Source: a plasmid
Length of the DNA: 2,257 nt
Reading direction: 5' to 3' (one strand)
Assembly: GCF_056746865.1 (NCBI RefSeq)
Contig: NZ_JBWKMP010000010.1
Within the stretch, counting starts at the first letter, position 1. Every line of letters starts with the position of its first letter. Shown in pieces: positions 1 to 2,257 of the stretch. The position numbers and the translations under genes were made by a program. Under the pieces are notes generated by a model, which was given only the letters and a program-made list of their open reading frames with translations, was not told where the DNA came from and ran no database searches.

Positions 1-837
1 AACGTCCTTAAGCACACCACCCGTCGCCACAAAACGGCGCTTATGTACCTGGCGTGTTAACTCTAGGAACCATTCAGGATCGACCAGCATGTCGGCGGGC
101 TTTGTAGAATATTTCAGTGTTTCAACCACCACCCCGCGCAGTTGATCCACCACAGAACAGGGCAACGATTCACCGTCTTTCGGTTTTCTGGACTTCACAA
201 CCCTGATGTCGACGTTCGGGTCATACTCCACCCGCAGACAGTCGCGCCACAACTCCACCCATCGGGCATGTTTCACATAACCATCACCGGACAACATCGA
301 GGGGGAAACCATCAGCAGGGTGTGGAAATGGGGATGAGCACTGCCGTCCTTGCCGCGGGTGACTTCCGTCGTGCGCACCCAACCCAGCACGCCGCGAAAC
401 TCTTTGCGATCTTTCAGGCGCTGGAAGGCCGCATTCATCACGGTCAGGGTGTCGCCAAGCTCCGTAATCGGACAGTTACGGACGGTCAGGGTCAGGAACA
501 GCCAGCGTGCATCAGGATATTCCGCAACGATCTTTGGCAGGGACTGATAGAAACGGGCTTGCCACATCAGGGAACGCCTCCACTGACAGATCGGACAGTG
601 CCGGACCCGACAGAACCGCGCATCACGTAACCGCAGGCGCGTTTCTCCGGTTTCCTCGTTGGTGGACCACCCAAAACGCAGAATGCCGCTACAACCCTCC
701 ACGCGTTCGCCGTAGCGTTCAAATCCGGCAGCCCGCAGATAAATTCCGCCCACATCATCGGAAATACTCCGGTGCTCATCCCACGTTTTGTCCGCAGGGG
801 AGTAATCCGCCAGATTCTGAAGTTCAGGGTTTTCCAT
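1..837 (-). CDS. Rolling-circle replication initiator, Rep_1 (pC194/pUB110-type HUH) family; 5' partial gene, start at 837, 3' end beyond window start
   Basis: Manual translation of the minus strand from ATG (complement of 835-837) is open for 279 codons to position 1: MENPELQNLADYSP...FLTLTVRN...HPHFHTLLMV...VETLKYSTKP.... It carries a Cys cluster CRVRHCPIC (612-586), motif I FLTLTVRN (498-475), HUH motif HPHFHTLL (336-313) and catalytic Tyr motif KYSTK (114-100) with Glu four residues upstream, the same layout as pC194 RepA. An in-frame TAG (850-852) sits just upstream of the ATG. Not in the ORF track because no stop lies inside the window. Confidence 0.9.
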   Translation of the reverse strand, partial: MENPELQNLADYSPADKTWDEHRSISDDVGGIYLRAAGFERYGERVEGCSGILRFGWSTNEETGETRLRLRDARFCRVRHCPICQWRRSLMWQARFYQSLPKIVAEYPDARWLFLTLTVRNCPITELGDTLTVMNAAFQRLKDRKEFRGVLGWVRTTEVTRGKDGSAHPHFHTLLMVSPSMLSGDGYVKHARWVELWRDCLRVEYDPNVDIRVVKSRKPKDGESLPCSVVDQLRGVVVETLKYSTKPADMLVDPEWFLELTRQVHKRRFVATGGVLKDV

Positions 838-2052: not shown

Positions 2053-2077
2053 AAAAAAACGCGCCTGAGCGCGTTTT
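2053..2077. terminator. Bidirectional rho-independent terminator, probably ending the minus-strand ORF at 2105-2257
   Basis: aaaaaaaCGCGCctgaGCGCGtttt: 5-bp G:C stem (2060-2064 with 2069-2073), 4-nt loop, extendable by A:T pairs, flanked by A7 on the left and T4 on the right. In the minus orientation the hairpin is followed by seven T, 28 nt after the TAA stop at 2105-2107. Confidence 0.65.
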
Positions 2078-2104
2078 AGAGGCCTTAAAATCGATTTTTA
2101 GATG

Positions 2105-2257
2105 TTATTTCTGTTTTGGCTTATCCATTGTGCGATCGCGGCGATACTTTTTAGCCACCGCCCGCCATGAAAACGCCAGACGCGATCCGTCATCCGCACC
2201 CTCTGCCATGCCATCTGCCATAATCAAATCCTCGTTCGTTTCCCGCTCCAGTTGCAA
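2105..2257 (-). CDS. 3' end of an unidentified minus-strand ORF (open to the window edge), or a complete 38-aa basic small ORF starting at ATG 2219-2221
   Basis: Minus frame from 2257 is open for 50 codons (...LQLERETNEDLIMADGMAEGADDGSRLAFSWRAVAKKYRRDRTMDKPKQK*) and ends at TAA (complement of 2105-2107). The other two minus frames hit stops within 11 and 22 codons. An internal ATG (2219-2221) has GAGGA (2229-2233) 7 nt upstream. A strong terminator lies just downstream. Confidence 0.45.
   Translation of the reverse strand: MQLERETNEDLIMADGMAEGADDGSRLAFSWRAVAKKYRRDRTMDKPKQK

Follow-up and report, generated by a model that had tools for sequence, protein, structure and literature searches.

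In enterobacteria, canonical intrinsic (Rho-independent) terminators consist of a G:C-rich stem with a tetraloop and an immediate U-tract, located tens of nucleotides past a stop codon. Bidirectional terminators between convergent genes are palindromes with an A-run and a T-run, giving a hairpin followed by U residues on both strands. Convergent transcription has itself been described as able to enforce termination where two such units meet (bioRxiv 10.1101/2022.10.23.513370). A further system that is close to the locus discussed here is the 3' flank of rep in the pIGWZ12-like plasmids of the MOBQ4 (MOBQ41) type, such as pSMS35_4, pDW54_4 and pYU39_5.1, in which rep and mobQ converge. The iteron-containing origin of pIGWZ12 has been placed upstream of rep (PMC6856555).

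In this analysis, a hairpin at positions 2053-2077 of a stretch of 2,257 nucleotides (the window) is compared with these systems. Judged from the sequence and its relatives, the hairpin is probably the intrinsic terminator of rep, efficient in the direction of rep and at most partial in the other direction, and located on an exchanged cassette. The hairpin adds one more example to a well-known class of elements, in a plasmid family that has already been sequenced, and the finding is of little importance by itself. It does allow the 3' end of rep to be annotated correctly in these cryptic enterobacterial plasmids, a common family, and the gene map is corrected to one wrapped rep instead of two genes.

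The plasmid and its rep gene

The window is an entire circular plasmid of 2257 bp, of the Col(MP18) type, and matches complete 2257-bp plasmids of E. coli and Salmonella over its full length in a rotated register. The metagenome contigs L020 and L018 cross the 2257/1 junction without a break, and L001 is a rotated copy. On the minus strand, joining 2105-2257 to 1-837 results in a single in-frame open reading frame of 329 amino acids, which matches Rep_1 (Pfam PF01446, 286 bits, E 2.6e-85). This rep gene encodes a Rep_1 family rolling-circle initiator and is the sole conserved gene of the plasmid. Because the reading frames at both edges join in frame over the circular junction, the right-hand minus-strand reading frame is the 3' end of rep; the initial annotation had called it the right-hand gene, and the reading frame at the left end is part of the same gene. 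A literature search on Col(MP18) and pPM18 yielded nothing relevant. The parts of rep and of its 3' flank are as follows.

1-837, minus strand: 5' part of rep, with the ATG at 837; 279 codons
2105-2257, minus strand: 3' part of rep, the last 50 codons and the stop codon, continuing from position 1 over the circular junction
2105-2107, minus strand: rep stop codon, TAA
2078-2104, minus strand: 3' UTR spacer of 27 nt between stop codon and hairpin, common to pIGWZ12-like plasmids
2053-2103, minus strand: module of about 50 nt (A-run, hairpin and TTTTAGAGGCCTTAAAATCGATTTT), found downstream of several different rep genes
2053-2059, minus strand: A7 run, which is UUUUUUU on the rep-strand RNA, the U-tract directly 3' of the G:C stem
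2056-2064, either strand: left arm of the palindrome, AAAA and CGCGC
2065-2068, either strand: tetraloop, CTGA on the + strand and UCAG on the rep strand
2069-2077, either strand: right arm of the palindrome, GCGCG and TTTT

Anatomy and stability of the hairpin

Positions 2053-2077 read AAAAAAA-CGCGC-CTGA-GCGCG-TTTT, and the perfect G:C stem between an A-run and a T-run that had been noted initially is found at exactly these positions. C2060-C2064 and G2069-G2073 form five G:C pairs around the loop C2065-A2068. In addition, A2056-2059 can pair with T2074-2077, resulting in a perfect stem of 9 bp at 2056-2077 (five G:C and four A:T pairs). The spacer next to it contains the palindromes AGGCCT (2080-2085) and AAAATCGATTTT (2087-2098). 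When folded as RNA, the core and the extended stem have energies of -7.9 and -12.3 kcal/mol on the minus strand and of -7.0 and -11.4 kcal/mol on the plus strand, and with flanks the palindrome folds at -14.8 versus -13.5 kcal/mol on the two strands.

No other perfect hairpin in the window reaches 9 bp with at least five G:C pairs. At least one such hairpin is present in 99 of 3000 dinucleotide shuffles (3.3%), and this frequency, together with the lack of covariation described below, would fit a chance palindrome without function. However, a hairpin of this kind combined with a T-run on either strand, with at least six T within 8 nt past the outermost G:C pair, is obtained in only one of 5000 dinucleotide shuffles, and the presence of the hairpin at these coordinates is therefore beyond chance. 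Also, it is identical in diverged relatives, despite changes in the neighbouring sequence, and has the same placement relative to the stop codons of unrelated genes, so that a chance origin is extremely improbable.

With the hairpin as the terminator of rep, the following course is predicted from its anatomy. RNA polymerase transcribing the minus strand would pass the rep stop codon (2107-2105) and then 27 nt of 3' UTR, after which AAAA-CGCGC-UCAG-GCGCG and UUUUUUU would be transcribed. Formation of the hairpin beside the weak rU:dA hybrid would lead to release of the transcript near 2053-2057, and transcription of rep would thereby be kept out of the structured, oriT-rich non-coding region. 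The G:C core of 5 bp counts against this, being near the lower limit of core length for efficient terminators.

Direction of termination

The hairpin starts 27 nt past the rep stop codon. On the rep strand, the tail after the G:C stem is UUUUUUUAUUACC, with a tail score of 5.19. The tail on the + strand is UUUUAGAGG (UUUU and then AGAGG), with a tail score of 3.13. On that strand, the flanking runs are unequal, with seven A upstream and four T downstream, and TTTT at 2074-2077 is the only U-run open to a + strand transcript. A consensus terminator scan called the hairpin on the minus strand only, both in the window and for the module hairpin in pSMS35_4. A rough d'Aubenton-Carafa discriminant is approximately +32 for the minus strand and -12 for the plus strand. 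Four hairpin-proximal U residues can yield some termination. Because just four U follow the palindrome on the + strand, termination there would be partial at most, and at best weak.

The initial annotation had described the element as a bidirectional terminator that insulates the non-coding region from the right-hand gene. Anatomy and position agree with this in the direction of rep, whereas the symmetry is not supported. It had also assumed a convergent arrangement of rep and + strand transcripts, which was not borne out. No + strand protein gene was conserved among the relatives compared. The + strand reading frame 1451-1972 (173 aa) was rejected as a gene ending at the hairpin, with a protein identity of 74-76% and 12 gaps at a DNA identity of about 93%, and a stop codon in L024. 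Near the hairpin, no consensus sigma-70 promoter was found on the + strand; the sole sigma-70-like + strand site in the window is located at 1245-1273, about 780 nt upstream, and one site equals the chance expectation.

A truly bidirectional intrinsic terminator would stop rep and would also stop + strand transcripts efficiently, shielding rep from antisense transcription. Both strands of the palindrome fold equally well, the + strand has the layout of A7, hairpin and U4, and in pIGWZ12-like plasmids the homologous module lies between the converging mobQ and rep; the reported role of convergent transcription as a driver of termination (bioRxiv 10.1101/2022.10.23.513370) would also favour this reading. 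A + strand RNA is conceivable, as no variation is seen within the subclade in the element TCGACA-17-TAAAAA (1900-1928), and pPM18 keeps both hexamers with a changed spacer. A vestigial mobQ promoter could also be present in the MOBQ4 oriT-like segment at 1711-1811. Against this stand the short + strand U-run with its lower tail score, the missing + strand call, and the lack of a conserved reading frame and of a nearby consensus promoter on that strand, with the candidate -10 element TAAAAA lacking the final T. Furthermore, mobQ, which converges on rep in pSMS35_4, has a strong + strand terminator of its own upstream of the module, CCCCCGTATATGGGGG-ATTTTTTT (L004, 2011-2037), at a distance of about 75 nt. 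As predicted from the sequence of this one pIGWZ12-like plasmid, the only one in which a separate mobQ terminator was examined, the mobQ/rep layout is one of two back-to-back one-way terminators rather than one shared two-way terminator. Efficient termination in both directions is therefore considered unlikely.

Within the right oriT arm, a vestigial promoter of nikA was considered as well and is not supported. The nikA gene of pDV45 begins immediately next to the repeat, and because of this the nikA promoter lies beyond the matched segment.

The module in other plasmids

The module at 2053-2103 was matched in 447 PLSDB records, of which the majority are MOBQ plasmids of approximately 4.07 kb of the pIGWZ12 type. 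In these plasmids, an unrelated Rep_3-type rep, read on the strand of the module, has its stop codon directly next to it, and mobQ approaches from the other side with its 3' end. The rep genes that carry the module are the Rep_1 gene of the window, a second Rep_1 gene (338 aa) in L018, and the Rep_3-type gene of the ~4-kb MOBQ4 plasmids. Overall, the module is found 0-27 nt past the stop codon of three to four different genes, and the long U-run (5-8 residues, mostly 7-8) is always on the strand of the gene.

The 4207-bp metagenome contig L018 contains two Rep_1 genes, of 329 and 338 aa, with the module within a few nucleotides of each (reverse-complement coordinates 62-84 and 2319-2341), and has the appearance of two small plasmids joined as a cointegrate. 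An exact copy of 27 nt, comprising the hairpin and its flanks (AAAAAACGCGCCTGAGCGCGTTTTAGA), is present at 1501-1527 of L029, a 5078-bp MOBP plasmid of Aeromonas hydrophila. There, a hypothetical gene on the minus strand ends 86 nt before the hairpin, with the U-run on the strand of that gene, and the rest of the plasmid is unrelated. A scan of genome contigs with the 23-mer TTTTAGATGCCTTAAAATCGATT gave a single match. This 23-mer is also present at 1486-1508 of L022, which derives from a 104-kb metagenome contig, without the hairpin, in AT-rich sequence and near a tyrosine recombinase gene, an occurrence that may be due to chance.

The module is probably spread by recombination among small plasmids residing in the same cell. 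A terminator cassette that is common to Rep_1 rolling-circle, Rep_3 theta and Aeromonas MOBP backbones would point to modular exchange at gene ends between co-resident small plasmids. Other functions for the module were considered as well. The module is not the origin of pIGWZ12, since that origin sits upstream of rep (PMC6856555), and a ColE2-type origin downstream of rep was rejected, with the ~4-kb plasmids being of the Rep_3/iteron type. Inspection of the module by eye for an Xer/cer-type site showed no convincing XerC/XerD arms.

A second role, as a 3'-UTR regulatory or Hfq-type small-RNA element or as a preferred crossover point, would be compatible with the terminator. The occurrence of the module 3' of three different rep genes and in so many PLSDB records, its presence 3' of both rep genes in L018, and a spacer (TTTTAGAKGCCTTAAAATCGATT) that is better kept than the stem all speak for such a role, as does a weak resemblance to isrK, an Hfq-binding RNA. 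However, among the ~4-kb plasmids, conservation of the spacer does not exceed that of the adjoining 3' coding sequence of rep, and the spacer varies in the variants selected by BLAST; the sample was partly selected by the requirement for the 23-mer, and no Xer-type core site was visible by eye. In a scan of Rfam at E up to 1, isrK (RF01394) was the sole match, with 21.1 bits against a gathering threshold of 50 and an E-value of 0.099. This match was rejected as a generic resemblance, driven by the terminator itself. A second role is thus held to be quite unlikely.

Variation of the stem among relatives

Covariation was tested on both strands with 16 distinct variants. A scan of metagenome contigs gave 15 loci as a source of stem variants, a sample that is biased because the 23-mer was required, and variants selected by BLAST were added to offset this bias. 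No compensatory changes were found in the stem, with zero pairs altered on both sides among the 16 variants. One of the two innermost pairs is disrupted in 8-9 of these variants and the other in 4-6, and the percentage of paired positions is alike on the strands (85.4 plus versus 86.1 minus). In many ~4-kb plasmids, only AAAACGC/GCGUUUU is left, with an 8-nt loop.

The substitutions in pSMS35_4, L002/L025 and L008 result in G.U pairs on the rep-strand RNA and A.C mismatches on the other strand, while pYU39 and pDW54_4 have the opposite G.U direction. Within the Col(MP18) subclade, the sole stem substitution (L002, L025) leaves a U.G pair in the rep-strand RNA but a C.A mismatch on the + strand. 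On the + strand, 14 of the 16 variants have the tail TTTT-AG and none has more than four T, and the minus-strand run has a length of 7-8 in most variants from ~4-kb plasmids and of 5 in L030. The case for function is therefore based on anatomy and repeated position, not on covariation.

Some Rep_1 relatives manage without an intact hairpin, which counts against the terminator reading. In pPM18, only a degenerate homolog of the hairpin is present (AACGCTTCTGAGCGCGTTTCT), and the ColpVC-type Rep_1 plasmids are without the hairpin and have an I-complex oriT directly past the rep stop codon.

oriT copies and structured elements around the hairpin

Two inverted copies of an I-complex (IncI/K/Z, MOBP) oriT are present at 1402-1489 and 1820-1892, with the nick motif CACATCCTG. 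The arms of this inverted repeat (1412-1484 and 1820-1892) are 73 nt long and 96% identical. The oriT arm matches approximately 1600 conjugative plasmids, and in pDV45 it adjoins nikA/mobA and the relaxase gene. The ColpVC-type relatives have a single copy. Between the arms, 1711-1811 is 77-83% identical to sequence located immediately before mobQ in the pIGWZ12-like MOBQ4 plasmids. It contains the invariant core TCACGAAGTGCGCACTTATACAA and is likely a third oriT, of the MOBQ4 type. Despite these copies, a relaxase gene is absent from the window.

Just upstream of the start of rep, a strong + strand hairpin is located at 936-974 (CCCCCCGAACGA...TCGTTGCGGGGG, then TTTATTTTTT; z -3.5). It has the appearance of a + strand terminator, at which a counter-transcript to the rep leader could stop, or it could be part of a double-strand origin. 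Between this hairpin and the ATG of rep, direct repeats are found at 873-892 and 903-922 (CGTGTTATCATTCCAATATC and CGAGTTATCAATCCAATTTC), which read TTGGA(A/T)TGATAAC on the rep strand and resemble the nick regions of the pC194/phiX174 type. These repeats are a candidate double-strand origin.

In the region 1935-2011, two mutually exclusive hairpins have the segment 1983-1995 in common. The pairing 1935-1948/1982-1995 varies among relatives solely via G.U pairs on the + strand. In the pairing 1983-1992/2002-2011, a compensatory change from A-T to G-C and a repair of G.A to G-C are observed in L001 and L024. The conserved TCGACA-17-TAAAAA is located just upstream of both hairpins. This region may encode a + strand RNA or act as a signal for single-strand initiation. 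The three oriT copies without a relaxase gene, the structures at 1935-2011 and the + strand hairpin upstream of rep are more notable than the terminator.

These structures bear on two further readings of the hairpin at 2053-2077. Its stem could also form the 3' end of a + strand small RNA of approximately 140 nt, starting near 1935 from TCGACA-17-TAAAAA and containing the hairpins of 1935-2011. Variation that is compatible with G.U pairing on the + strand only is in favour of a + strand RNA; the small-RNA reading is nevertheless considered unlikely. If it were true, the ~50-nt cassette would be a two-way terminator and a portable boundary between replication and transfer modules among unrelated small plasmids.

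The hairpin could also be one stem of a larger folded single-stranded DNA signal that primes synthesis of the complementary strand, i.e. a single-strand origin or an initiation site used after conjugative entry. Because the plasmid encodes a rolling-circle Rep_1 initiator and has three oriT copies, single-stranded forms of both strands are expected. The region 1935-2080 is packed with hairpins, one of which shows a true compensatory change, and a region of 111 nt folds better on the minus strand than its shuffles (z -2.6), both of which favour such a signal. However, the module is also found in the theta, iteron-type pIGWZ12-like plasmids with their origin upstream of rep (PMC6856555), where the stem is eroded without compensation, and the sequence between the hairpin and the neighbouring hairpins is poorly conserved. 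Known single-strand origins are far larger than a hairpin of 22 nt. A role as a single-stranded DNA signal is considered very unlikely, and termination of rep is the preferred reading of the hairpin.

Comparison with known systems

The hairpin resembles the canonical intrinsic terminators of enterobacteria in its G:C-rich stem, tetraloop, immediate U-tract (U7 on the rep strand) and location tens of nucleotides past a stop codon. It differs from them in that only the 5 bp of the core are G:C, and that the other pairs are A:U and use part of the U-tract. The likeness to isrK (Rfam RF01394) lies in AU-rich sequence ahead of a terminator hairpin with its U-run. Like bidirectional terminators between convergent genes, the locus has a palindrome with an A-run and a T-run, and a hairpin followed by U on both strands; unlike them, the runs are of unequal length (7 versus 4), and the plasmid is without a converging + strand gene. 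A likeness in sequence is to the 3' flank of rep in the pIGWZ12-like MOBQ4 plasmids pSMS35_4, pDW54_4 and pYU39_5.1, in which the module has 84-93% identity over 44-51 nt and is located directly past the rep stop codon in the same orientation. In those plasmids, however, the module follows a Rep_3-type theta rep instead of a Rep_1 rolling-circle rep, and the stems are mostly eroded, whereas the stem in the window is perfect.
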